Below the pieces are notes generated by a model that made no database searches, had not been told where the DNA came from, and saw only the letters and a list, made by a program, of their open reading frames with translations. A DNA stretch of 64,000 nucleotides, taken from NCBI RefSeq assembly GCF_041886205.1, contig NZ_CP169029.1, one strand, 5' to 3'. How positions within the stretch are numbered: the first letter of the stretch is position 1; every line of letters starts with the position of its first letter. This DNA is from Escherichia coli. GTDB taxonomy: Bacteria; Pseudomonadota; Gammaproteobacteria; Enterobacterales; Enterobacteriaceae. A program made the position numbers and the translations under genes. Shown piece after piece: positions 1 to 56,650 of the stretch.

Positions 1-3000
1 TGCAGGCCGGGATGTGAGCAGTCAGGGTGCAGGTATCGCAGCGGAAGACAACATCACTGTCCGGGCCGGGCGCGACGTTAATCTGCTGGCGGAAGAGTCC
101 GTGACCGGCAGCAGTTCATACTCGAAAAAGAAAACGGTCATTGATGAAACCGTTCGCCAGCAGGGAACGGAAATCGCCAGCGGTGGTGACACCACCATTA
201 CTGCAGGACGGGATATCACCGCTGTTGCGTCATCCGTTACCGCAACCGGCAATATCAGTGTGAATGCCGGTCGTGATGTCGCCCTGACCACGGCGACAGA
301 AAGTGACTATCACTATCTGGAAACGAAGAAAAAAAGCGGAGGTTTTCTCAGTAAGAAAACCACCCACACCATCAGTGAGAACAGTGCCACCCGTGAAGCA
401 GGCGCCCTGCTGTCGGGGAACCGCGTGACCGTTAACGCCGGTGATAACCTGACAGTACAGGGTTCGGATGTGGTGGCTGACCGGGATGTGTCACTGGCGG
501 CGGGTAACCATGTTGATGTTCTTGCTGCCACCAATACAGATACGTCCTGGCGCTTTAAGGAAACGAAGAAATCCGGTCTGATGGGTACCGGCGGTATTGG
601 TTTCACCATTGGCAGCAGTAAGACAACGCACGACCGCCGCGAGGCCGGGACAACGCAGAGTCAGAGTGCCAGCACCATCGGCTCCACTGCCGGTAATGTC
701 AGTATTACCGCGGGCAAACAGGCTCATATCAGCGGTTCGGATGTGATTGCGAACCGGGATATCCGCATTACCGGTGACAGTGTGGTGGTTGACCCGGGGC
801 ATGACCGTCGTACTGTGGACGAAAAATTTGAGCAGAAGAAAAGCGGGCTGACGGTTGCCCTTTCCGGCACAGTGGGCAGTGCCATCAATAATGCGGTTAC
901 CAGTGCACAGGAGACGAAGGAGAGCAGTGACAGCCGTCTGAAAGCCCTGCAGACCACAAAGACAGCGCTGTCTGGTGTGCAGGCCGGACAGGCTGCGGCA
1001 ATGGCCACCGCAACCGGTGACCCGAATGCGACGGGAGTCAGCCTGTCGCTCACCACCCAGAAATCGAAATCACAACAACATTCTGAAAGTGACACAGTAT
1101 CCGGCAGTACGCTGAATGCCGGGAATAATCTGTCTGTTGTCGCAACCGGCAAAAACAGGGGCGATAACCGCGGAGATATTGTGATTGCAGGAAGCCAGCT
1201 TAAGGCCGGTGGTAACACAAGCCTGGATGCCGCGAATGATATTCTGTTGAGTGGCGCTGCAAATACACAAAAAACAACGGGCAGGAACAGCAGCAGTGGC
1301 GGTGGCGTGGGTGTCAGTATCGGTGCCGGTGGTAACGGTGCCGGTATCAGTGTCTTTGCCAGCGTTAATGCGGCAAAAGGCAGCGAGAAAGGTAACGGTA
1401 CTGAGTGGACTGAAACCACAACAGACAGCGGTAAAACCGTCACCATCAACAGTGGTCGGGATACGGTACTGAACGGTGCTCAGGTCAACGGCAACAGGAT
1501 TATCGCCGATGTGGGCCACGACCTGCTGATAAGCAGCCAGCAGGACACCAGTAAGTACGACAGTAAACAGACCAGCGTGGCTGCCGGCGGCAGTTTTACC
1601 TTTGGCTCCATGACCGGCTCAGGTTACATCGCTGCCTCCCGGGATAAGATGAAGAGCCGCTTTGATTCCGTTGCTGAACAAACCGGAATGTTTGCCGGTG
1701 ACGGCGGCTTCGACATTACAGTGGGCAGACATACCCAACTGGATGGTGCGGTGATTGCCTCCACTGCCACACCGGATAAAAACCACCTGGATACCGGAAC
1801 GCTGGGGTTCAGTGACCTTCACAACGAAGCGGATTATAAAGTCAGTCACAGTGGAATCAGTCTGAGCGGTGGTGGCAGCTTCGGGGATAAATTTCAGGGT
1901 AACATGCCGGGTGGCATGATATCCGCCGGAGGTCACAGCGGACATGCGGAAGGAACGACTCAGGCCGCAGTGGCAGAAGGCACTATCACCATCCGGGACA
2001 GGGACAATCAGAAGCAGAATCTGGCGAACCTGAGCCGTGACCCTGCGCACGCTAATGACAGTATCAGCCCGATATTTGACAAGGAGAAAGAGCAGAGGCG
2101 TCTGCAGACAGTGGGGCTTATCAGTGACATAGGCAGTCAGGTGGCGGATATTGCGCGTACACAGGGAGAACTGAATGCGTTGAAGGCCGCGAAGGAAGCA
2201 ACCGGCGAAACACTTCCTGCTAATGCAACAGAGAAACAACGTCAGGAATATCTTGCGAAACTGCGTGACACGCAGGCTTACAGGAATGAAATGGCGAAGT
2301 ATGGCACTGGTAGTGAAATTCAGCGGGGTATCCAGGTCGCGATGGCAGCGCTTCAGGGCCTGGCGGGCGGCAATATGGCAGGCGCGCTGGCAGGTGCTTC
2401 AGCGCCGGAGCTGGCGAACATCATCGGTCATCACGCGGGTATTGATGACAATACAGCTGCAAAAGCCATTGCCCATGCCATTCTCGGTGGTGTGACAGCA
2501 GCCCTTCAGGGCAACAGTGCGGCAGCAGGCGCAATTGGCGCGGGTACTGGCGAAGTGATCGCGTCAGCCATTGCGAAAAGCCTCTACCCGGACGTAGATC
2601 CGTCGAAACTGACAGAAGAGCAGAAGCAAACTGTAAGCACGCTGGCAACGCTGTCAGCGGGTATGGCCGGCGGTATTGCCAGTGGCGATGTGGCTGGCGC
2701 GGCTGCTGGGGCTGGTGCCGGGAAGAACGTTGTTGAGAATAATTTACTTGGCGGTAGTGAAGATGCTCAGGCTGCGTGGATACGCCAGCATGGTATCGAC
2801 ATGGCGACATGTGCAGAAAACCCTTCCGGTGCCGCCTGCCAGAAAGCAATGAATGAGAGGGATGCTGTAGGGCTGGCTCTGGCAACAGGTACAGTGGCAC
2901 TACTCCCCGGTAGTGCTCAGGCTATGTGGGGACTGGGAGCAAGTGCGAATGCTGGTATCAGTTATCTGGCTGATGGTACTGTAGATCCGGCAAACGCAGC

Positions 3001-3406
3001 CATTGCAGGCTGGGTGAATGTGTTCAGCATGGGTAATGGCCTGGCGGGGACTGTGGGCTGGAATGCGGCAGGTGGTGCGCTGGGTAACTGGATCGACAAC
3101 AAAGATCCTCTGTCTGGTGCAATTTCAAATGGTATCGGTTCTGCTGCCGGGTATGGTATCGGTAAAGGTGTTACTTGGGGGACAGATAAGATTACGAATG
3201 CTGTAGGAAAATGGGTGACAAATGGCTGGGATCCTAAGTACGATCCAACATGGATAAAATATGCTGAAGTAAATCGTAACGATATCATTCGAGAAGGCAT
3301 GAAACCGAGCAATGTTCCTGGAACTGCTGGAGATATTGGCGGTTCTATAGGATCTGAGCTAGGTGGAAAAGTAACAGATAAAGTATCTGAGGAACTCAAG
3401 AAATGA
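1..3406 (+). CDS. cdiA: CdiA contact-dependent inhibition exoprotein, C-terminal part (5' partial, gene continues upstream of window)
   Basis: Frame open from window start; repeated AGRD/AGND hemagglutinin-type repeats; pretoxin region; VENN motif encoded at 2732-2743 followed by a ~220-aa glycine-rich C-terminal domain ending in a K-rich tail. Confidence 0.85.
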
Positions 3407-3660
3407 AATATTCTTCTCGAGTGGTAATAGGTAAGTTTATTATATGCAGTTCAATTCTCTTATTGTGTTTTATTGGCATGATCTTAGCGGCCATAATAAC
3501 TAAACTAACGTTTGTAGCGTTAGCATGGTTTCAAAGCGGGATTTTTGAAGTTTTGTGGAGCGATATTGTTTATGCTGCTCAGTTGGGTGGTCTGGGGGGG
3601 GGCATATTAGGTTTTTGTTGGGTTTTGTTATATCTTTTTAGGGCAAAGGGCTTTAGTTGA
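3403..3660 (+). CDS. cdiI: Putative CdiI immunity protein (85 aa, predicted membrane protein)
   Basis: Start overlaps cdiA stop (ATGA); small hydrophobic protein immediately after the toxin domain. Confidence 0.65.
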
Positions 3661-4564
3661 GAATAACTACCTCAGCTACGACGAGGCGCATGCTTTTGAC
3701 AGAGAAATGACGGCCTGTCGTAAAGCGGGTGGAGACTGTGGCGATATTCAGAATAAATATGCTGTATTAAGCGCAGAGAACCGACAGAAATTACACATTG
3801 ATGTGGCTGCAGATCCTCTTACGGCTCTGTCCGGGGAAGATAAATGGAATATTGAGGGCGGACTCAGCGCGGCGGGCCGACCTGGCTGGCTGTATGGTTC
3901 ACTGACTAATCAGGAGGTGAAGGATTACGTGACTGAAGGCAACAGCTACGACCTGAACTATCTGAACAGTAATACGTCGAAGGGTGACAGGGCTCTGGCT
4001 TTCTTCGGGGAACCGGAAAATTACTGGGGTACGGTTGCCGGAGCGGGTTCGTTGTTAACGTCATCAGCCACGCTGACTGAAAAATTTGTCAGTGCCGGGC
4101 TGAGCTATGGGGCTAATGGTGCGGTACAAATTGGTACGGGAAATATCGGTGATAAGTTCGATTATCTCAGTTTCATGATGTCAGGCTTGACTGGTGTAGG
4201 TACAGCCGGGAAAGGATATTACGCTAACCAGTTGTTGGGTGCTGGTAGTGCTTACATGAGCAGCCAGATTGAAGGCCAGGACAGTACCGCATCAGTAGTG
4301 GGTAGCATGGCTGGTACAGGCCTAGGATATAACGTTGGTGCTTCAATTACTAATAAGTTAGAAGCTCAATACATCAAAAATCAACTGGGAATGGACGCCA
4401 GTAAATATTCACTGCAATATTCGGAAAAGTCTATCGGATACGGTATGTATCAAGGCGGACAAATGAGTTCTATACCAGGAACATTTGGTGGATTTGTTGG
4501 TTCATTCGTATCAGAAGGTGCAAGCAGCGCAACGCAAAAAGAAGTTGATGGAGACAAAAAATGA
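3656..4564 (+). CDS. Orphan cdiA-CT module 1 (VENN remnant + glycine-rich toxin domain); internal ATG at 3707
   Basis: Frame begins with [11 protein letters not shown] directly after cdiI stop, with no upstream start; Gly-rich domain ending EVDGDKK like the main CT. Confidence 0.65.
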   Translation, partial: VENNYLSYDEAHAFDREMTACRKAGGDCGDIQNKYAVLSAENRQKLHIDVAADPLTALSGEDKWNIEGGLSAAGRPGWLYGSLTNQEVKDYVTEGNSYDLNYLNSNTSKGDRALAFFGEPENYWGTVAGAGSLLTSSATLTEKFVSAGLSYGANGAVQIGTGNIGDKFDYLSFMMSGLTGVGTAGKGYYANQLLGAGSAYMSSQIEGQDSTASVVGSMAGTGLGYNVGASITNKLEAQYIKNQLGMDASKYSLQYSEKSIGYGMYQGGQMSSIPGTFGGFVGSFVSEGASSATQKEVDGDKK

Positions 4565-4779
4565 AAAAATATCTACTACTTCTTATTAAGTTGTTACTTA
4601 TATCTATAGCTACTTGCTCTATTGGAATAGTGGTTAGTATCTGGCTTATAGCTCGGGAACCAATACCTTCTGAGGTGTATGTAAAATACGGAATAATTGG
4701 CGCAGTAGTTGGCTTATGGGGAGGTGCTGGGATTTGGTTACAACTCTATCTACAAATGCGAAGATACTATCGTAAATAG
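4561..4779 (+). CDS. Orphan cdiI 1 (72 aa membrane protein)
   Basis: ATGA overlap with preceding toxin module; strongly hydrophobic. Confidence 0.55.
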   Translation: MKKYLLLLIKLLLISIATCSIGIVVSIWLIAREPIPSEVYVKYGIIGAVVGLWGGAGIWLQLYLQMRRYYRK

Positions 4780-5429
4780 TTGTTGTTGAGAATAACTCAC
4801 TGGCGCATGTACTGGCAGCAGCGGAAGCGAACAAAGCAGGGACTGCAGAGAAATGGCAGGAAGAGCAGCAGGCTGCGATTAGAGAGGCGTGCAGTGGTGG
4901 TACGCCGGTTTCGTGTGAAACAGCAGTCGCAGCGATGGGAAGTGCAATGGTATGGCCGCTATTGCCAGGGGCGGCAGCCACTACAAGTCTGATAGGTGCA
5001 GGAGCGAATGCCGGCATCGGGTTACTGATTAACGGTGAAGTGAATCCAAATGATGTCATTCTTGGTTACTGGACGGGAGTCTTTACAGCAGGAACTAGGC
5101 TGTGGGGGACGATGGGTGTGAATGCGGCCAGCGGAGCCACATCCAGCTATCTAAAAGGTGATGATCCGCTGAAAGGTGGGGCAATGGGGGGAATGTCGTC
5201 AGGATTAGGATATGGTGCTGGCAAAGTTCTTCAGGGGCAACTCGATAAGTTCATTAATCCAAACTGGAAGAATTGGGAGTGGGTTGATGTTGGTATGGGC
5301 ATATCGAAGCCAATGCCATTAGATCCACTGCCTGGGGTTATCGGCAATATGGGAGGTTCTGCGTCTACAGAATACATCAACGATCGAATAGGAAAATCTT
5401 TGAGTGATAAATCAGGAGATAAGAAATGA
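4779..5429 (+). CDS. Orphan cdiA-CT module 2 (VVVENN + glycine-rich toxin domain); first ATG at 4935
   Basis: In-frame VENN codons at 4785-4796 with open frame through 5429; no start codon before 4935. Confidence 0.6.
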   Translation, partial: VVVENNSLAHVLAAAEANKAGTAEKWQEEQQAAIREACSGGTPVSCETAVAAMGSAMVWPLLPGAAATTSLIGAGANAGIGLLINGEVNPNDVILGYWTGVFTAGTRLWGTMGVNAASGATSSYLKGDDPLKGGAMGGMSSGLGYGAGKVLQGQLDKFINPNWKNWEWVDVGMGISKPMPLDPLPGVIGNMGGSASTEYINDRIGKSLSDKSGDKK

Positions 5430-5680
5430 GTTCTTCTGACCGCAAAAAGATCCTGATCCTTTTAATATGCATGGTGACTGGTAGTGCTGTTGGTGTTTTT
5501 ATAACCATACTATCTATGTCTTTATTAATAGATATATATCTATATATCGCAGAAGGTATAAGGTTAGACATGCATACATATAATCTTGAAAAACTTTTTA
5601 AAGTAAGTTCATTCTGTGGTTGTATAGGCGGCGGTGGCTGTTGGTTACTCTATTATCGAAATTATAGAAAAAATAAATAA
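5426..5680 (+). CDS. Orphan cdiI 2 (84 aa membrane protein)
   Basis: Overlapping start; hydrophobic segments. Confidence 0.55.
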   Translation: MSSSDRKKILILLICMVTGSAVGVFITILSMSLLIDIYLYIAEGIRLDMHTYNLEKLFKVSSFCGCIGGGGCWLLYYRNYRKNK

Positions 5681-5682
5681 TA

Positions 5683-5820
5683 GTTGAGAATAACTACCTC
5701 AGCTACGACGAGGCGCATGCTTTTGACAGAGAAATGACGGCCTGTCGTAAAGCGGGTGGAGACTGTGGCGATATTCAGAATAAATATGCTGTATTAAGCG
5801 CAGAGAACCGACAGAAATAG
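5683..5820 (+). pseudogene. Duplicated stub of orphan module 1 (VENN-proximal ~135 bp) ending in TAG
   Basis: 5684-5817 is a near-exact copy of 3658-3791, then TAG at 5818-5820, in the same frame as the following module. Confidence 0.6.
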
Positions 5821-7173
5821 GATATTGCCGGGCTCAGCCGGGACCCGGAAAACGCCAACGGCAGCATTGCACCGATATTTGACAGGGAGAAAGAGCAGAA
5901 GCGTCTTCAGGAAGCGCAGGTTATCAGCCAGATTAGCGGTCAGATGAGTAACATCGTCATGACGTATGGCGAAACTGAAGCGATGAAAGCAGCCAGGAAA
6001 GAGCATCCTGGCATGAGCGATGCACAGTTGCGGGAGACTCCGGAATACAGAGAGGTCATGAAAGGCTACGGTACGGGCAGTACGCCGCAGATGGTGGTAC
6101 AGGCCATCACAGGCGTGCTGGGCGGACTGAATGCAGGGAATCCGGGGCAGGTACTGGCTGGCGGTCTGAATCCGGCAGTGGCACAGCTTATAAAACAGGC
6201 CACCGGCGATAACCGGGAAGCAAACCTGATGGCTCACGCAGTCTGGGGAGCGCTTGCCGCACAACTGGGCGGAAACAATGCGGCTTCCGGTGCTGCAGGG
6301 GCATTCAGCGGTGAACTTGCAGCCCGGTATATCATTGATAACTACTACGGTGGTCGTACCGATAACCTGAGTGAACAGGAACGTCAGCAAATCAGCATGC
6401 TGGCCACCATTGCCTCAGGTATTGCGGGCGGGCTTGTCGGCAACAGTACAAGTGCTGCCGGTACGGGGGCACAGGCAGGCAGGAACTCGGTTGAGAATAA
6501 TGCGCTGAGTCTGGTTGCCAGAGGCTGTGCGGTCGCAGCACCTTGCAGGACTAAAGTTGCAGAGCAGTTGCTGGAAATCGGGGCGAAAGCGGGCATGGCC
6601 GGGCTTGCCGGGGCGGCAGTCAAGGATATGGCCGACAGGATGACCTCCGATGAACTGGAGCATCTGATTACCCTGCAAATGATGGGTAATGATGAGATCA
6701 CTACTAAGTATCTCAGTTCGTTGCATGATAAGTACGGTTCCGGGGCTGCCTCGAATCCGAATATCGGTAAAGATCTGACCGATGCGGAAAAAGTAGAACT
6801 GGGCGGTTCCGGCTCAGGAACCGGTACACCACCACCATCGGAAAATGATCCTAAGCAGCAAAATGAAAAACCTGTAGATAAGCTTAATCAGAAGCAAGAA
6901 AGTGCGATTAAGAAGATCGATAACACTATAAAAAATGCTCTGAAAGATCATGATATTATTGGAACTCTCAAGGATATGGATGGTAAGCCAGTTCCTAAAG
7001 AGAATGGAGGATATTGGGATCATATGCAGGAAATGCAAAATACGCTCAGAGGATTAAGAAATCATGCGGATACGTTGAAAAACGTCAACAATCCTGAAGC
7101 TCAGGCTGCGTATGGCAGAGCAACAGATGCTATTAATAAAATAGAATCAGCCTTGAAAGGATATGGAATATGA
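5821..7173 (+). CDS. Orphan cdiA pretoxin-VENN-CT module 3; toxin domain ends with GYGI
   Basis: ~220 codons homologous to the cdiA pretoxin region ([22 protein letters not shown]...), VENN at 6490-6501, C-terminal tetrapeptide GYGI at 7159-7170; first ATG at 5944. Confidence 0.7.
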
Positions 7174-7556
7174 TTACCTTACGTAAATTGATTGGAAACA
7201 TCAATATGACAAAAGAGCCTGAGCAACAATCACAGCTTGAACTCTGGTTCGAACGTATCATAGATGTGCCTCTTGAAAAGTTAACAGTGGAAGATCTTTG
7301 CCGCGCTATCCGACAAAATTTATGTATTGATCAGTTGATGCCAAGAGTGTTGGAAGTTCTAACTAAAGAGCCGTTAGCGGGTGAATATTACGATGGTGAA
7401 CTAATTGCAGCTTTATCAACGATAAAAGGAGAAGATCTAAAAGATCAGAAAAGTACCTTTACCCAAATAAGGCAACTTATAAACCAGCTAGAACCGTCAG
7501 ATATTAACGATGATTTAAGAAAAGATATATTAAAAATCAATCAGATAATTGTATAA
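7170..7556 (+). CDS. Orphan cdiI 3 (128 aa, soluble-type immunity protein)
   Basis: ATGA overlap with module 3 stop; non-hydrophobic protein. Confidence 0.55.
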
Positions 7557-7597
7557 CTAATCCCGGTCACTGAGCCGAGATCTTCTTTGTGTGCCGG

Positions 7598-9415
7598 GCA
7601 TGTTCAGCAGCTCGGGGGTGAAAGTCCCCTGTCCAGCCTGATGGTGGCGAAGGACTAGCGAAGCGCAAGGGCGTCGTCGTAAGGCGGGGTCTGAAGGAAG
7701 CGTGAAGCAAATCCATGACCTGACGAACAGAAATCCGATACGAGGCCTACCCGGTTGGCGGAGCAAGCAAAGAATTGCGAAGGCCATAACCATCAAGAAC
7801 CGGGGGGTAAATCGGACAGGTGTGTGGTGAAGGCGTCTGAACTTACCCCGGGAGGCCTGTCCGTCGTTCTGTATCTAGAACTTAGCGTACCGTAAGGGGC
7901 GCTGACCGGCGGACAGGAGTCAGCAGAGGGCATAGTAGGGCATGACACCCGAAGGCCCGAACGGTAATGAGTGACGAGTATCAACGGAGGTTCTGAACGG
8001 TCATGCAGCAGAAAACGCATCGCGCCCCTGAGGCCGGAGAACGGGGTGAAGCCCCGAACGCCGCCCTTCCGGGGGCTGAAACCGTGCAGGCACCGACGAA
8101 CAGAGAAAGTCCGTCGTCAACAGTGTGGCTGATGGAAGCCATTTGTGAACCAGTCAATCTCAGGCAAGCCCTGAAAAGAGTTAAAGCCAACAAAGGTGCA
8201 GCGGGAGTCGATGGTATGCGCGTAAGCGAACTGCCGGACTACCTGAGGCACCACTGGCCAGAGCTGAAAGCGCAACTACTGTCTGGCAGATACCGCCCAT
8301 CTCCTGTGAGAAGAGTGTCCATACCGAAGCCCGGCGGCGGCGAACGTCTGCTGGACATCCCGACGGTGGTGGATCGCTTCATCCAGCAGGCGATGATGCA
8401 GGTATTGCAGGGGCACTGTGGGATAGCTCGTTCAGCGATAACAGCTACGGGTTCCGTCCCGGTCGTTCGGCCCACCAGGCAGTGATACAGGCCCGGGAAC
8501 ATATCGGGGCCGGGTATCACTGGGTGGTCGACCTCGATCTGGAGAAGTTCTTCGACCGGGTAAATCACGATGTGCTGATGAGCCGGATAGAGAAACGAGT
8601 ATCGGATAAACGGGTGTTGTCACTTATCCGCAGGTTCATGAATGCAGGGGTGATGGACGCAGGTCTGGTAAGGCCGGTGACAGAAGGAACGCCGCAGGGC
8701 GGCCCACTGTCGCCGCTGCTATCGAACCTGCTGCTTGACGACCTCGACAAGGAACTGGAGAAACGTGGTCTGAAGTTCGTGCGGTACGCAGACGACTGTA
8801 ATGTCTACGTGAAAAGCGAACGGGCAGACAACCGGATCATGGCGGGGTTGACGCACTGGCTGAGCCATAAACTGAAGCTGAAGGTCAACGCGAAGAAGAG
8901 TGCTGTAGCACGCCCTGAAACGCGCAAGTTCCCTGGATACAGCTTCATAAGGGGGCGGAAGGTATGGTGCGTGGTATCGCCGGAGTCGATAAAACGGTTC
9001 AAAATGCGGATAAGAGCACTGACCGGACGCAACACAGGGAGAAGCCTTGAACAGCTAACCCGGTTGCTAAAACGATATCTGACGGGCTGGAAAAGTTACT
9101 ACGGGCTGAACCAGAGGCCATCGCTGATGCGAGAGCTGAACGGATGGATAAGGCGCAGTCGAGGCGTAAGCAAGGACCTTGCGGCGCAAACAGCAGGAAG
9201 CTGCCATAAAGAGTGGCGGATAAGCTGTAGTCCGGCACTGAATATAGCACTCCCCAATAATCTGTTCTCCAGACTGGGCCTGCCAGAAGTATAGGCAGGC
9301 GACGATCAACATAACCGAACCGCCGTATACGGCCCCATACGTACGGTGGTGTGGGAGGAAGCTGATCGTGAGATCAGCTCCTATCCCGATTTAACCGTCA
9401 GTCTCCCCCAAAATG
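7598..9415 (+). mobile_element. Group II intron (boundaries approximate)
   Basis: GUGUG-type 5' start near 7598, structured GC-rich RNA domains, internal RT/maturase ORF, domain V-like hairpin near 9320-9360. Confidence 0.65.
8003..9294 (+). pseudogene. Group II intron reverse transcriptase/maturase, frameshifted near 8420-8430
   Basis: RT motifs (SYGFRPGRSAHQA, YADD) split between ORF 8003-8485 and ORF 8482-9294; the correct frame switches between ...QVLQ and LWDSSFSDNSYGF. Confidence 0.75.
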
Positions 9416-9442
9416 CCCGTCCTGGCGCTTGTACACTGGCAT

Positions 9443-9535
9443 ATTGGCATGATCTTAGCGGCCATCATAGCTAAACTAACGTTTGTAGCGTTAACATGGT
9501 TTCAAAGCGGGATTTTTTAAGTTTTGTGGAATGAT
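9443..9535 (+). pseudogene. Decayed fragment homologous to cdiI (copy of ~3473-3565)
   Basis: About 90 bp at ~93% identity to the internal part of cdiI at 3403-3660, with a stop-creating substitution. Confidence 0.6.
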
Positions 9536-17226: not shown

Positions 17227-17287
17227 TTTTGTGCGTAACCGGCTCATTTAAACCGTCTGGTCTGTTTCCTCCGGCTCTACAAAAATA

Positions 17288-17965
17288 ATGTCCATCATTT
17301 TTAATGGACACTATCGTATGAAACACCGGACCTGGATCACTGAAGCTTTACGTCTTCACTTTGAAGAACATTTACCCCGGGTTGTGGCCGGGCGTCGCCT
17401 GGGTGTACCAAAATCAACAGTTTGTAGTATGTTCGTGCGCTTTCGGAGAGCTGGCCTTTCGTGGCCTTTGCCCGCAGGCATGTCGGAGCAGGAACTTGAT
17501 GCCTGCCTTTACGGACAATTTTCCACGGTACCAGTCGTACGTCCTGAAAGCACCGTTATATCCGAAGCCCCCGTGGTAAAAAAACGTCCCCGGCGGCCCA
17601 ACTTCCCTTATGAGTTTAAAATCGCCTTAGTGGAGCAGTCACTGCAGCCCGGAGCCTGTGTGGCGCAGATCGCCCGGGAAAACGGAATCAACGATAACCT
17701 GCTCTTCAACTGGCGCCATCAATACCGGAAAGGTGGCCTGCTGCCTTCCGGAAAAAATATGCCGGCACTGCTTCCCGTGACGTTAACGCCGGAGCCGGAT
17801 AATAAAATCCCGGCCCCCGCACAGGAACCAGAGCAGATAAATACACCGTCCGACAGTCTGTGTTGTGAGCTGGTTCTGCCGGCCGGAACTCTCAGGCTTA
17901 AAGGTAAACTGACGCCGGCGTTATTACAGACACTTATCCGCGAAATAAAAGGGAGCAGCCACTGA
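17288..17965 (+). CDS. tnpA: IS66-family Orf1 (TnpA-like); start uncertain
   Basis: HTH region; first gene after the left inverted repeat. Confidence 0.6.
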   Translation: MSIIFNGHYRMKHRTWITEALRLHFEEHLPRVVAGRRLGVPKSTVCSMFVRFRRAGLSWPLPAGMSEQELDACLYGQFSTVPVVRPESTVISEAPVVKKRPRRPNFPYEFKIALVEQSLQPGACVAQIARENGINDNLLFNWRHQYRKGGLLPSGKNMPALLPVTLTPEPDNKIPAPAQEPEQINTPSDSLCCELVLPAGTLRLKGKLTPALLQTLIREIKGSSH

Positions 17966-18312
17966 TGATATCTCTCCCTGCAGGTTCGCGTATCTGGCTG
18001 GTTGCAGGTATCACCGATATGCGAAATGGCTTTAACGGCCTGGCATCAAAAGTTCAGAACGTCCTGAAGGATGACCCGTTCTCCGGACACCTGTTCATCT
18101 TCCGCGGACGCCGGGGTGACCAGATAAAAGTGTTGTGGGCTGACAGTGACGGACTGTGCCTCTTCACCAAACGCCTGGAGCGGGGCCGCTTCGTCTGGCC
18201 AGTCACCCGTGACGGCAAGGTGCACCTTACTCCGGCTCAGTTATCCATGCTTCTTGAAGGTATCAACTGGAAGCACCCGAAACGAACGGAACGCGCTGGA
18301 ATCCGCATATAA
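17965..18312 (+). CDS. tnpB: IS66-family Orf2 (TnpB)
   Basis: 115 aa, typical TnpB sequence. Confidence 0.85.
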   Translation: MISLPAGSRIWLVAGITDMRNGFNGLASKVQNVLKDDPFSGHLFIFRGRRGDQIKVLWADSDGLCLFTKRLERGRFVWPVTRDGKVHLTPAQLSMLLEGINWKHPKRTERAGIRI

Positions 18313-18331
18313 CCCGTTGTAAAGTGAGGAT

Positions 18332-19903
18332 ATGGACACCTCACTTGCTCATGAGAACGCCCGCCTGCGGGCACTGTTGCAGACGCAACAGGACACCATC
18401 CGCCAGATGGCTGAATACAACCGCCTGCTCTCACAGCGGGTGGCGGCTTATGCTTCCGAAATCAACCGGCTGAAGGCGCTGGTTGCGAAACTGCAACGTA
18501 TGCAGTTCGGTAAAAGCTCAGAAAAACTTCGTGCAAAAACCGAACGGCAGATACAGGAAGCACAGGAGCGAATCAGCGCACTTCAGGAAGAAATGGCGGA
18601 AACGCTGGGTGAGCAATATGACCCGGTACTGCCATCCGCCCTGCGCCAGTCTTCAGCCCGTAAACCGTTACCGGCCTCACTTCCCCGTGAAACCCGGGTT
18701 ATCCGGCCGGAAGAGGAATGCTGTCCTGCCTGTGGTGGTGAACTCAGTTCTCTGGGATGTGATGTGTCAGAGCAACTGGAGCTTATCAGCAGCGCCTTTA
18801 AGGTTATCGAAACACAACGTCCGAAACAGGCCTGTTGCCGGTGCGACCATATCGTGCAGGCACCAGTACCTTCAAAACCCATTGCACGCAGTTATGCCGG
18901 AGCGGGGCTTCTGGCCCATGTTGTCACCGGGAAATATGCAGACCATCTGCCGTTATACCGCCAGTCAGAAATATACCGTCGTCAGGGAGTGGAGCTGAGC
19001 CGTGCCACACTGGGGCGCTGGACAGGTGCTGTTGCTGAACTGCTGGAGCCGCTGTATGACGTCCTGCGCCAGTATGTGCTGATGCCCGGTAAAGTCCATG
19101 CTGATGATATCCCCGTCCCGGTCCAGGAGCCGGGCAGCGGTAAAACCCGGACAGCCCGGCTGTGGGTCTACGTCCGTGATGACCGTAACGCCGGTTCACA
19201 GATGCCCCCGGCGGTCTGGTTCGCGTACAGTCCGGACCGGAAAGGTATCCATCCACAAAATCACCTGGCCGGTTACAGCGGTGTGCTTCAGGCCGATGCT
19301 TACGGTGGTTACCGGGCGTTATACGAATCCGGCAGAATAACGGAAGCCGCGTGTATGGCTCATGCCCGGAGAAAAATCCACGATGTGCATGCAAGAGCGT
19401 CCACCTACATCACCACGGAAGCCCTGCAGCGTATCGGTGAACTGTATGCCATCGAGGCAGAGGTCCGGGGCTGTTCAGCAGAACAGCGTCTGGCGGCAAG
19501 AAAAGCCAGAGCCGCGCCACTGATGCAGTCACTGTATGACTGGATACAGCAACAGATGAAAACACTGTCGCGTCACTCAGATACGGCAAAAGCGTTCGCA
19601 TACCTGCTGAAACAGTGGGATGCACTGAACGTGTACTGCAGTAATGGCTGGGTGGAAATCGACAACAACATCGCAGAGAACGCCTTACGGGGAGTGGCCG
19701 TAGGCCGGAAAAACTGGATGTTCGCGGGTTCCGACAGCGGTGGTGAACATGCGGCGGTGTTGTACTCGCTGATCGGCACATGCCGTCTGAACAATGTGGA
19801 GCCAGAAAAGTGGCTGCGTTACGTCATTGAACATATCCAGGACTGGCCGGCAAACCGGGTACGCGATCTGTTGCCCTGGAAAGTTGATCTGAGCTCTCAG
19901 TAA
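18332..19903 (+). CDS. tnpC: IS66-family transposase TnpC
   Basis: 523 aa; leucine-zipper N-terminus, zinc-finger cysteines, [20 protein letters not shown]. Confidence 0.9.
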
Positions 19904-19906
19904 ATA

Positions 19907-21382
19907 TCAATACGGTTCTGACGAGTCGCTTACTTTTGTGCTGTCGCCAAAATCACTAATCCCTCTCACAATAAGCGCTGGAACTCCCTGCTTTTCGCAG
20001 GCATCAAATACCCCATAGGCTTCCATTTCGGCAACACAGGCTTTGTCATGAAGCGACCTGAAACGTTCTAGTAAAGCAGGATCGCGGATAAGAAGCTCTC
20101 CTGATGCGATAGTGGCTGAAGAAACAATTATCCCAGCAGCTACGTCTCCAGCCTGCGAATTTTCAGGCATTTCGAGTCCTATAGCCTGTGCCCGTTCGCC
20201 AAGACGTGCGGATAGTGACGTTGTTGCAAGGTAAGTATTGAGGTTTTGTTTAGTTGGCATATGGAGACATAATATTTCAGGTCGAGGAGCAAACTTCCCA
20301 CCTTCTAATGCGGCTGCACTTTCATAATAAATGACACGCTCAGAAATAATGACTTCACCTAGCACCATTTTTTCTCTCAACCCCGCCGCAATCCCCATCA
20401 TCAAGACTTTTTGGGGTTTGAATTCCGACAACAACATGGTAGTAATAGCTGAAGCATTCACATTTCCAGCACTAGCGAAAGACGCCACTATGCCAGTTAC
20501 TGGGCCATCTGAGCGTTGTATGGATGTGGACCAGAAATGTATTCCATTTGATGTGAGCCGCGGAGATTCATCATCAGCTATGCCAAATACTTTCTTGGCT
20601 GCAGCAAGTTCAACTGGTAGAGCTGTCAAAATCAACACATTTGGAGTATGCAGCAACTGTTGTGCAGCCCATTCAGCTTTAAGCAATTCAACTGCGATTT
20701 CTGAAAGTCGTTCCAGTCCATAGTAAGGTTCCTGTAACGATAAAGTGTCGAGCTGATTTTTTACGGCTTCACCGGTGCAAGGGAACATAGACAGCGGCTC
20801 TGCATAAAAACGTGCATGTAGGCCTAAAGCACCTTTTCCGTCATCGCAAATTCCCCCAAGCTCCAAGTCAAACGGTAATATGGGGTGGTTGGCTTTACGC
20901 ATTTTACTCGCACGATCGGAAACGCCTTTTCCTCCACCTAATGCAATCATGGCTGTGGCAGCATCAACCTGCTCGCTTCCAATATTTCCTCCAGTAATGA
21001 GATCATCATCTAGATAGCTGACATCAGCAAATCTAGCTGCCTGAAGTTTACGAATAAGCATCCGATTCTCTTCAGACATTTTCTCCCGCATTGCAGAACG
21101 CGACGTGACGATCTTGAGTTGGTGGGCTGGCGTATAATTCTCCATTAAATCTACAGCTTCTTTTACTATCGTCCAGTCGAAGGTCAGGAGATCCCCATTT
21201 TCATTAACAGGTTCTCCTGCCAAATAGACAACTAGTCCCACATTTGCATCAAGGATGCTCTTCGTCAATGCTCGAACGAAACTATGTGCTCGATCAATAT
21301 AAAGTTTTTCTGTATTTTTGGATATACTTCCAGCGATCAGAACATACTCATTATTAGTATTTGTCATCACAATTCTTCCCAA
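19907..21382 (-). CDS. Two-domain protein: N-terminal Rossmann-like domain with GGGKG motif (possible ligand sensor) + C-terminal PNP/MTA-nucleosidase-family domain; 3' end interrupted by IS66 element 2
   Basis: C-terminal half has nucleosidase-like motifs (VAEMEAYGV, RGISDFGD); last 8 codons and stop are IS-encoded (VSDSSEPY*). Confidence 0.6.
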   Translation of the reverse strand: MGRIVMTNTNNEYVLIAGSISKNTEKLYIDRAHSFVRALTKSILDANVGLVVYLAGEPVNENGDLLTFDWTIVKEAVDLMENYTPAHQLKIVTSRSAMREKMSEENRMLIRKLQAARFADVSYLDDDLITGGNIGSEQVDAATAMIALGGGKGVSDRASKMRKANHPILPFDLELGGICDDGKGALGLHARFYAEPLSMFPCTGEAVKNQLDTLSLQEPYYGLERLSEIAVELLKAEWAAQQLLHTPNVLILTALPVELAAAKKVFGIADDESPRLTSNGIHFWSTSIQRSDGPVTGIVASFASAGNVNASAITTMLLSEFKPQKVLMMGIAAGLREKMVLGEVIISERVIYYESAAALEGGKFAPRPEILCLHMPTKQNLNTYLATTSLSARLGERAQAIGLEMPENSQAGDVAAGIIVSSATIASGELLIRDPALLERFRSLHDKACVAEMEAYGVFDACEKQGVPALIVRGISDFGDSTKVSDSSEPY

Positions 21383-34412: not shown

Positions 34413-34739
34413 ATGACTAAAAATACACGTTTTTCCCCCGAAGTCCGTCAACGGGCAGTTCGTATGGTTCTGGAAAGTCAGGGCGAATATGACTCACAAT
34501 GGACAGCAATTTGTTCTATTGCCCCTAAGATTGGCTGTACACCGGAGACTCTGCACGTCTGGGTACTCCAGCATGAGCAGGATATTGGGGGCGGTGATGG
34601 TGGTTTCACCACCACTGAACGTCAGCGTCTGAAAGAGCTGGAACGTGAAAATCGTGAACTGAGCCGCAGTAACGATATCCTTCGCCAGGCTTCCACTTAT
34701 TTTGCGAAGGCGGAGTTCGACCGCCCCTGGAAAAAATAA
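34413..34739 (+). CDS. IS3-family OrfA (IS629-like)
   Basis: 108 aa; MTKNTRFSPEVRQRAVRMVLESQGEYDSQW. Confidence 0.8.
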   Translation: MTKNTRFSPEVRQRAVRMVLESQGEYDSQWTAICSIAPKIGCTPETLHVWVLQHEQDIGGGDGGFTTTERQRLKELERENRELSRSNDILRQASTYFAKAEFDRPWKK

Positions 34740-35112
34740 TGCCACTGCTGGATAAGTCGCGTGAGCAGTACGGGATCGGACCGGTATGCAGTGAACTGCA
34801 TATTGCCCCGTCAACGTATTACCACTGTCAGCAACAGCGACATCATCCTGATAAACGCAATGCCCGTGCGCAGCGTGATGACTGGCTGAAGAAAAAGATA
34901 CCGTGCGTATACGATGTGCGTAAAGTCTGGCGTCAGTTGTTTCGGGAAGGTATCAGAGTGGCCAGATGCACTGTGGCACGTCTCATGGCGGTTATGGGGC
35001 TTGTCGGTGTTCTCTGGGGTAAAAGGTCCGCACTACCGTCAGCCGGAAAGCCGTTGCCGTAGACGACCGCGTAAACCGCCAGTTCGGGGCAAAGTCGTGG
35101 GTGGCTGATTTT
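34739..35112 (+). pseudogene. IS629-like OrfB, truncated and frameshifted, interrupted at ...ADFTY by a group II intron
   Basis: OrfB N-terminal homology across two frames, ending at the intron 5' end. Confidence 0.7.
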
Positions 35113-44523: not shown

Positions 44524-44599
44524 TGGTGCCCGGACTCGGAATCGAACCAAGGACACGGGGATTTTCAATCCCCTGCTCTACCGACTGAGCTATCCGGGC
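44524..44599 (-). tRNA. pheV: tRNA-Phe (GAA)
   Basis: 76-nt match to the canonical E. coli tRNA-Phe including CCA end; location next to yqgA and speC. Confidence 0.95.
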
Positions 44600-56408: not shown

Positions 56409-56650
56409 GTTTGATATAGCGCACGATTTGTAGCAGGATGCGGCGTTGACCCCGCATCCGGCAATCAACGTCTGATGCGACGCTTGCGCGTCTTATCAGA
56501 CCTACAACCGCTGCCACATGTCGGCTGAGGCGCTCACGCCGCATCCGACAATCAACGTCTGATGCGATGCTTGCGCGTCTTATCAGACCTACAAACGTTG
56601 CCACATGTAGGCTGGATAAGGCGTTCACGCCGCATCCGGCAATACAAGTT
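56409..56650. repeat. Cluster of REP/BIME elements
   Basis: Repeated GCCGCATCCGGCA, GTCTGATGCGACGCT and CGTCTTATCAGACCTACA units in alternating orientation. Confidence 0.8.

Follow-up and report, generated by a model that had tools for sequence, protein, structure and literature searches.

The cdi locus at the left end of a 64,000-nucleotide (nt) stretch of Escherichia coli DNA (assembly GCF_041886205.1, contig NZ_CP169029.1; the whole stretch is called the window below) raises the question of what a row of toxin gene fragments without start signals can be for. Downstream of a contact-dependent growth inhibition (CDI) gene pair, cdiA-cdiI, three orphan modules lie head to tail and 0–5 nt apart, each consisting of a C-terminal toxin region (CdiA-CT, or CT) and an immunity gene (cdiI), as the original prediction had claimed. 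This array, joined at VENN motifs and holding four immunity genes beside orphan toxin tips that are presumably untranslated, very likely serves in the main as a stock of immunity.

The window begins within cdiA, whose open reading frame (ORF) runs off the left end, and the reading frame is uninterrupted from 14 to 3406 (all features are on the plus strand unless stated otherwise). Positions 14–2731 hold the 3′ part of the gene, with FHA-2 repeats and the pretoxin region, and give a PT-VENN Pfam match (E 1.3e-16). The VENN codons are located at 2732–2743 in the main gene, 3656–3667 in orphan 1, 4785–4796 in orphan 2, 5683–5694 in a stub, and 6490–6501 in orphan 3. The orphans had been predicted to start at or near VENN without a start codon and to be followed by an overlapping immunity ORF, and that is the arrangement found. 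The first in-frame ATG, GTG or TTG of the orphan frames is at 3707 (17 codons past VENN in orphan 1), 4935 (50 codons past VENN in orphan 2) and 5944 (41 codons into the open frame 5821–7173 of orphan 3, upstream of its VENN), none with a convincing Shine-Dalgarno box. The four immunity ORFs (3403–3660, 4561–4779, 5426–5680 and 7170–7556) all start with ATGA over the toxin stop codon and all have an AGGA/GGAG-like box 8–14 nt upstream. The G+C fraction falls from 0.56 in cdiA to 0.32–0.38 in every immunity ORF. Over 4.8 kb there is no internal stop or frameshift in any of the three orphan toxin frames or the four immunity ORFs, all of which are intact.

An orphan module was described as lying downstream of cdiA-cdiI, carrying a 5′ VENN and having no translation initiation signals (Poole 2011, PMC3150448). 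The three modules here show this position, the VENN and the absence of initiation signals, together with a paired, ATGA-coupled immunity ORF. Each orphan CT is also homologous to the C-terminus of a full-length CdiA elsewhere, a further mark of orphans in that study, and each orphan cdiI co-occurs with its own CT in other genomes. A lack of homology to CdiA-CT families is excluded for the orphan frames, since the tips end full-length cdiA in strains CFS3292, 33F4 and CFS3273 and orphan 3 is the UPEC536 toxin. The array is real and a standard example of the orphan arrays described since 2011 (Poole 2011).

The 138-nt exact repeat discussed below, the five VENN boxes and the four ATGA-coupled pairs, all within 4.8 kb, argue that the array is not a product of chance. 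Its junctions recur in independent complete assemblies, and the module sequences, which are 96–100% conserved across many lineages, occur in tens to hundreds of genomes. The whole array is held by only one of the 5426 complete E. coli genomes compared, that of the bovine strain ZYB39 (chromosome NZ_CP098234.1), whose region is the same as that of the window save for one single-nucleotide polymorphism (SNP) in 22 kb and two insertion sequence (IS) differences.

The orphan toxin fragments are presumably not translated, for they lack a start codon, a ribosome-binding site and a secretion signal. Each of the four immunity genes has a ribosome-binding site of its own and, if transcribed, would be translated and would protect against neighbours that deploy the four toxins. 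They would be the only parts of the locus likely to act, and only under that proviso of transcription. The cdiBAI locus of strain EC93 is built alike, with a main toxin and cdiI followed by a start-less, VENN-initiated UPEC536-type orphan with its cdiI (Poole 2011, PMC3150448). The array here differs in having three orphans plus a stub, in that its 536-type orphan retains a complete pretoxin domain from another class of cdiA, and in that the main and the first two orphan tips appear to be alpha-helical ionophores of different entry groups. The EC93 orphan cdiI was shown to be expressed, and the orphan CT is apparently not made (Poole 2011, PMC3150448). This precedent is consistent with an immunity-only role here.

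Expression of the orphan toxins from internal ATGs (3707, 4935/4947 and 5944), as intracellular toxin-antitoxin-like pairs, is very improbable. RefSeq annotates the first two as coding sequences in ZYB39 (the frame from 5944 is annotated as a pseudogene there), and each frame is translationally coupled to its immunity gene. However, no Shine-Dalgarno-like sequence precedes any of these codons, the products would miss parts of the entry domains, and the EC93 orphan, with the same layout, apparently yields its CdiI without the CT.

The original prediction took the main cdiA to be intact, an assumption that does not hold in the nearest relative. The 8-kb cdiA ORF of ZYB39 starts as the N-terminus of an IS66 TnpC transposase, with LZ_Tnp_IS66 and zf-IS66 domains, and continues in the same frame into hemagglutinin repeats; the fusion start lies upstream of the part shared with the window, at 4607–5200 of the ZYB39 stretch, and is annotated as a frameshifted hemagglutinin-repeat protein. 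No TPS domain was found in cdiA of the ZYB39 locus and no cdiB upstream of it. Since the nearest relative has neither cdiB nor the cdiA secretion domain, the locus in this lineage is probably no weapon and would act as an island of immunity genes. The single SNP in 22 kb suggests that the source strain of the window is like ZYB39; if so, no toxin of the locus would be exportable.

Several points weigh against reading the array as a stock of immunity. The truncation of cdiA and the absence of cdiB were seen in the relative ZYB39, not in the window itself. A consensus promoter scan of 3200–8100 gave 6 sites, with 7.8 expected by chance, so that transcription of the orphan cdiI genes would need read-through from upstream, outside the window, and the region upstream in ZYB39 is the IS66 fusion. 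The toxin class of orphans 1 and 2 is derived from pairwise and cross-genome homology, and the main CT is placed at the level of the ionophore family and no further. Terminator-like signals in 3200–8100 were not above chance.

The same evidence from ZYB39 bears on a second explanation, namely that the array no longer has any function, being what is left of a dead CDI locus in an island rich in IS elements, and persists only by drift. We consider this possible, if rather unlikely. The fusion of ZYB39 cdiA to the transposase N-terminus and the missing cdiB speak for it, as do the flanks, which consist of a group II intron and IS66, IS256, IS481 and IS21 elements, the insertion of ISCro1 into the stub that ZYB39 tolerates, a relic cdiI fragment at 9442–9530, and the degraded copy of the main module in EC93. 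Decay would hardly have left three toxin frames and four immunity ORFs intact over 4.8 kb, however, nor an orphan-3 CT that is 1 of 227 residues away from a crystallised toxin, nor modules 96–100% conserved in many lineages. The stock of immunity remains our preferred explanation.

Can the orphans return to service as toxins? The original prediction proposed that module 3 in particular, with about 220 codons of pretoxin homology, would allow recombination back into cdiA. The length is right, as the pretoxin region of orphan 3 (5821–6489) has 223 codons, but the useful homology to the resident gene is not there. This region belongs to the class-536 cdiA genes and is 5′-truncated at the FHA-2/pretoxin boundary; it gives a PT-VENN Pfam match (E 7e-17) and is 97.6% identical to cdiA of strain 88-3493, with 96–98% identity to 88-3493, A1.S1.65 and others. 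Against the resident pretoxin region it shows 54% identity over ungapped columns, and the longest exact match to the visible resident cdiA is 14 nt. Orphans 1 and 2 have only the 12–15-nt VENN box in common with cdiA. In E. coli, RecA recombination has a minimal efficient processing segment of about 25 nt, a figure that Shen and Huang are said to have given in 1986. All the shared stretches are below this length, and on this figure none of the orphans would recombine efficiently with the resident cdiA through RecA.

The array as a reservoir whose orphans, especially module 3, recombine back into the resident cdiA and change the deployed toxin is thus an unlikely explanation, although it is the model proposed by Poole 2011 (PMC3150448). 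The pretoxin identity and the short matches just given speak against it; moreover, such an event would remove the current immunity gene, and the cdiA of the nearest relative is not secretable. What favours it is that one cdiA pretoxin region bears the main, the orphan-1 or the orphan-2 tip depending on the strain, and that the order of the modules is swapped in CFS3292, which together show exchange at the VENN box over evolutionary time.

By its length, the pair of 138-nt repeats is the only stretch of the array suited to efficient RecA recombination. Recombination between them would delete 2027 bp, comprising the rest of orphan 1 and its cdiI as well as orphan 2 and its cdiI, and would load no new toxin. 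The predicted deletion product, in which the main cdiI is followed by the stub, TAG and pretoxin region, was found in none of the complete genomes.

The breakpoints suggest how the array may have grown. The junctions from the main cdiI to orphan 1 and from the orphan-1 cdiI to orphan 2 occur, beyond the window, only in ZYB39, and in all other genomes the homology to the array ends within a few nt past the VENN codons. Blocks of homology running from VENN to VENN were described for EC869 and strain 254 (Poole 2011, PMC3150448). Such an array would be built if recombination took place repeatedly at the VENN box or right beside it, each event displacing older tips downstream. A more doubtful proposal, which we hold to be quite unlikely, is that modules are exchanged exactly at the 12–15-nt VENN box without ordinary RecA recombination, through a mechanism that uses short homology or is otherwise dedicated to the task. 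Compatible with it are the position of every breakpoint across the genomes within a few nt of the box, the length of the box below the efficient RecA minimum, and the occurrence of different tips, by strain, on one stub-pretoxin scaffold. If it were true, the window with ZYB39, 33F4, CFS3273, CFS3292 and OkiPb01714 would form a natural series for reconstructing the exchanges.

The stub (5681–5820) comprises the first 138 nt of the orphan-1 module (VENN plus 41 codons) and ends in TAG. The original prediction reported a 135-bp copy of the VENN-proximal segment of module 1 at 5684–5817; an exact copy does exist, but its extent is 138 nt, with 100% identity between the left copy (3654–3791) and the right copy (5681–5818). 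It was also right that the copy is in the same frame as module 3 and separated from it by a TAG, which lies at 5818–5820, in frame with the orphan-3 pretoxin frame from 5821.

The reading of the stub as a duplication born in this locus does not survive comparison with other strains. In OkiPb01714 and in O111:H8 strain 7-58 72A, a complete orphan-1 module lies directly after the orphan-2 cdiI. In 33F4, 32F4, 33E, CFS3273 and BN01, the same 140 nt including the TAG follow the orphan-2 cdiI and are followed by the class-536 pretoxin region, so that the truncated form recurs unchanged in other lineages. The stub-pretoxin unit is found behind other modules in at least four more cases (ZYB62, RM8082, USMARC-49610 and a second locus of ZYB39).

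An assembly or collapse artefact, which was named at the outset as the finding that would undo the duplication, has hardly any credibility left. Its sole support is that exact repeats can mislead assemblers. Against this, about ten other complete genomes have the same junction of stub, TAG and pretoxin region; it agrees in 140 of 140 nt between independent assemblies whose origins include France, Switzerland, China and the USA, and several of these genomes have no second copy of orphan 1. In addition, ZYB39 bears ISCro1 inside the stub with an 8-bp target duplication, GTATTAAG (window 5791–5798).

Aligning the three partners of the junction reveals its origin. Orphan 1 reads GACAGAAAT up to the fusion point and TACAC after it; class-536 cdiA reads GTCAGAAGC before the point and AGGATATTGCC after it; and the stub with orphan 3 reads GACAGAAAT followed by AGGATATTGCC. 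The TAG arises from the junction itself, beside a CAGAA microhomology, at the FHA-2/pretoxin boundary of the class-536 gene. From this alignment and the full module in other strains, the stub is recognised as what remains of the 5′ end of an orphan-1 module that was truncated. On these sequences it is an inherited scar, and neither an assembly artefact nor a duplication born in this locus. A single illegitimate recombination that joined an orphan-1 tip to a class-536 cdiA at the CAGAA microhomology would account for the junction, which would then have been inherited and moved as a unit. In other strains the stub-pretoxin scaffold carries AENN and a different tip in place of the UPEC536 toxin, showing that the tip behind the orphan pretoxin region has also been exchanged.

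Which toxins would the four immunity genes answer? Hallmarks of the CDI ionophore family are a glycine zipper, bipartite tips, and a hydrophobic two-helix CdiI of 72–100 residues; the ionophore domain of the family, predicted to be a bundle of five helices, depolarises target cells (Halvorsen 2024, PMC11630599). The main, orphan-1 and orphan-2 tips all have the glycine zipper and a small hydrophobic CdiI (85, 72 and 84 residues, respectively), and by sequence match these published hallmarks of ionophore toxins. No GxxxGxxxG motif was found in the orphan-3 tip. Pfam assigned neither the orphan-1 nor the orphan-2 tip to a family, and an NCBIfam scan of eight proteins gave no match. Because the libraries are blind to these two tips, a library search alone would wrongly have refuted their kinship with CdiA-CT, and comparison of genomes was needed.

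The main CT (2732–3406, with 221 residues after the VENN codons) is an ionophore-type tip with 16.5% glycine and GxxxGxxxG at positions 136, 142 and 203, and shares 34% identity with the orphan-2 CT (E 1e-20). Its cdiI (3403–3660) overlaps the CT stop with ATGA and encodes 85 residues with two clearly separate hydrophobic segments in the hydropathy profile; the product is WP_000877779.1, found in many genomes. The main CT and cdiI also end the full-length cdiA of strain 11, and the main tip, as tip or as orphan, occurs in 258 of the 5426 genomes. The main cdiA pretoxin region is 100% identical to cdiA of 33F4 and CFS3273.

Orphan 1 (3656–4564) encodes a YciB-type entry domain and an ionophore domain. 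Group 4 ionophores have a YciB-dependent entry domain related to the N-domain of the EC869 o11/TA271 DNase toxin, with a conserved Cys pair. Residues 10–160 of orphan 1 match residues 5–157 of 4G6U_A, the N-domain of EC869 CdiA-CT o11 (E 7.7e-15), with the Cys pair aligned; judged by this match, the entry domain is of the YciB type, which defines group 4. The C-domain is distantly homologous to the main and orphan-2 CTs (E 2e-6 and 4e-5), and GxxxGxxxG is located at positions 216/220. The CT ends full-length cdiA in CFS3292, QA-1986 630 and A1.S1.65, and the module is present in 40 genomes. CFS3292 has a 10,017-nt cdiA with cdiB upstream that ends in the orphan-1 CT and cdiI, and the main CT and cdiI of the window sit behind it as an orphan, in reversed order. 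The orphan-1 cdiI (4561–4779) has the ATGA overlap and a GGAG box and encodes 72 residues with one continuous hydrophobic stretch by hydropathy; it is 99–100% conserved beside the orphan-1 CT in other genomes.

The cdiA of plasmid A of strain M15, near-identical to the orphan-1 CT, was tried as a route to group 6 and set aside, as this copy is truncated by an IS110-like fragment; the M15 protein in Halvorsen 2024, WP_073519402.1 (3238 residues), is a different gene from the plasmid A cdiA. At 3700–4220 of the plasmid A stretch, the orphan-1-type tip diverges over its last ~50 codons, which makes the ORF stop 32 residues short. An IS110-like transposase fragment overlaps this divergent 3′ end, and there is no cdiI behind it.

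Orphan 2 (4785–5429, its frame open from 4776) has GxxxGxxxG at positions 132/136. Its CT is 100% identical to the CT of full-length CdiA in CFS3273 (WP_159373418.1) and 33F4. WP_159373418.1 stands in the group 5 block of the S1 Appendix of Halvorsen 2024 (PMC11630599), and group 5 ionophore toxins enter via PuuP/PlaP (Halvorsen 2024, PMC11630599); this identity places the orphan-2 tip in group 5. The orphan-2 cdiI (5426–5680), with the ATGA overlap and an AGGAG box, encodes 84 residues with two clearly separate hydrophobic segments by hydropathy; it is WP_040088721.1, which lies beside the orphan-2 CT in 33F4, CFS3273 and O111:H8.

A group for the orphan-1 and main tips was sought through the RefSeq accessions of full-length CdiA carriers, of which only WP_159373418.1 is in the Halvorsen list; the other carrier accessions are newer than the paper and so lie outside it. 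The primer table of the same paper has a tip start like that of the main CT, pointing to M15 or TMC005, but the primer names are inconsistent and no group was taken from them. A match on an EC93 plasmid was rejected as a functional reference for the main CT, being a degraded orphan. In this cdi-2 locus (plasmid pCP127, 13001–13933 of the stretch compared) the main-type tip has an internal stop and its cdiI is frameshifted; it sits behind an Ntox25-type cdi-2 toxin and cdiI, with a DUF6862 orphan starting VENNYLS after it.

Orphan 3 carries, from its VENN onward (6490–7173), a UPEC536-type CdiA-CT with a 223-residue tip ending in GYGI. The CT is identical in 226 of 227 residues, the GYGI end included, to the crystallised UPEC536 tRNase (PDB 5J5V chain B); its Ntox28 match is weak. 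The cdiI (7170–7556, with the ATGA overlap) encodes a soluble, UPEC536-type protein of 128 residues, and residues 1–128 match PDB 5J5V chain C (E 1.7e-78). The UPEC536 toxin, a tRNA anticodon nuclease, depends on CysK, into which GYGI inserts, for its activity and on FtsH for its entry. The orphan-3 pair is predicted to be the UPEC536 CysK-activated tRNase and its CdiI, with growth inhibition and neutralisation to match.

The ORFs that RefSeq calls hypothetical proteins here can thus be named as CDI tips and immunity genes for a YciB-entry ionophore, a group 5 ionophore and the UPEC536 tRNase, which predicts to which CDI toxins this lineage of bovine-type E. coli should be resistant. The strain comparison gives a clean illustration of VENN-box shuffling and of a truncated module carried as a scar. 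Beyond annotation, the locus is of little importance and opens no new question.

Several described systems resemble this array. The eleven orphans of EC869/O157:H7 are likewise modules set head to tail with blocks of homology from VENN to VENN (Poole 2011, PMC3150448); the array here is shorter and its order is different. O157:H7 genomes such as FRIK944 hold the orphan-1 and main modules ~6 kb apart, the main one annotated as a VENN pre-toxin fragment. The cdi loci of 33F4, CFS3273 and BN01, which our literature search did not find described, share with the window the cdiA pretoxin region and the block of orphan-2 CT, cdiI, stub-TAG and class-536 pretoxin region, but they have the orphan-2 tip loaded on full-length cdiA and AENN with another tip after the stub-pretoxin. 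Arrays of Rhs orphan toxins were reportedly the subject of work by Koskiniemi et al. in 2014. Rhs orphans are also start-less C-terminal toxin/immunity cassettes behind a main gene, for which duplication-recombination was proposed as the loading route (Poole 2011, PMC3150448); they differ in delivery, by Rhs and the type VI secretion system instead of two-partner secretion, and in the demarcating motif, PxxxxDPxGL instead of VENN. The ionophore groups 1–6 of Halvorsen 2024 (PMC11630599) have the same bipartite tips, glycine zipper and small two-helix immunity proteins; in contrast to that set, two of the three ionophore tips here are orphans and not deployed toxins.

Mobile elements surround the array. 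Besides the ISCro1 copy in the stub of ZYB39, an ISCro1-like (IS66 family) copy at 17234–19936 of the window is missing from that site in ZYB39; the two differences indicate, by comparison of sequences, recent IS activity between two otherwise near-identical strains. A group II intron (7600–9440) lies directly after the orphan-3 cdiI, with Rfam matches to D1–D4 at 7673–7841 and 7881–7957. Its reverse-transcriptase frame is split into 8003–8485 and 8482–9294, and Rfam gave no D5/D6 match at the gathering threshold; the intron may therefore be defective. Directly 3′ of it, an 89-nt relic of a main-type cdiI (9442–9530) is 95.5% identical to 3471–3559; it is probably all that mobile elements left of a further orphan module.

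At the other end, window position 1 may be a contig edge caused by a repeat. The same position (9402 of the ZYB39 stretch) is a mosaic boundary in cdiA, where the identity between ZYB39 and CFS3292 jumps from about 75% to 96.8%. Other Rfam matches in the window are an ALIL pseudoknot, an IS3-type frameshift element, at 34694–34810, one tRNA gene on the minus strand at 44527–44599, and two naRNA4 repeats at 56432–56589.

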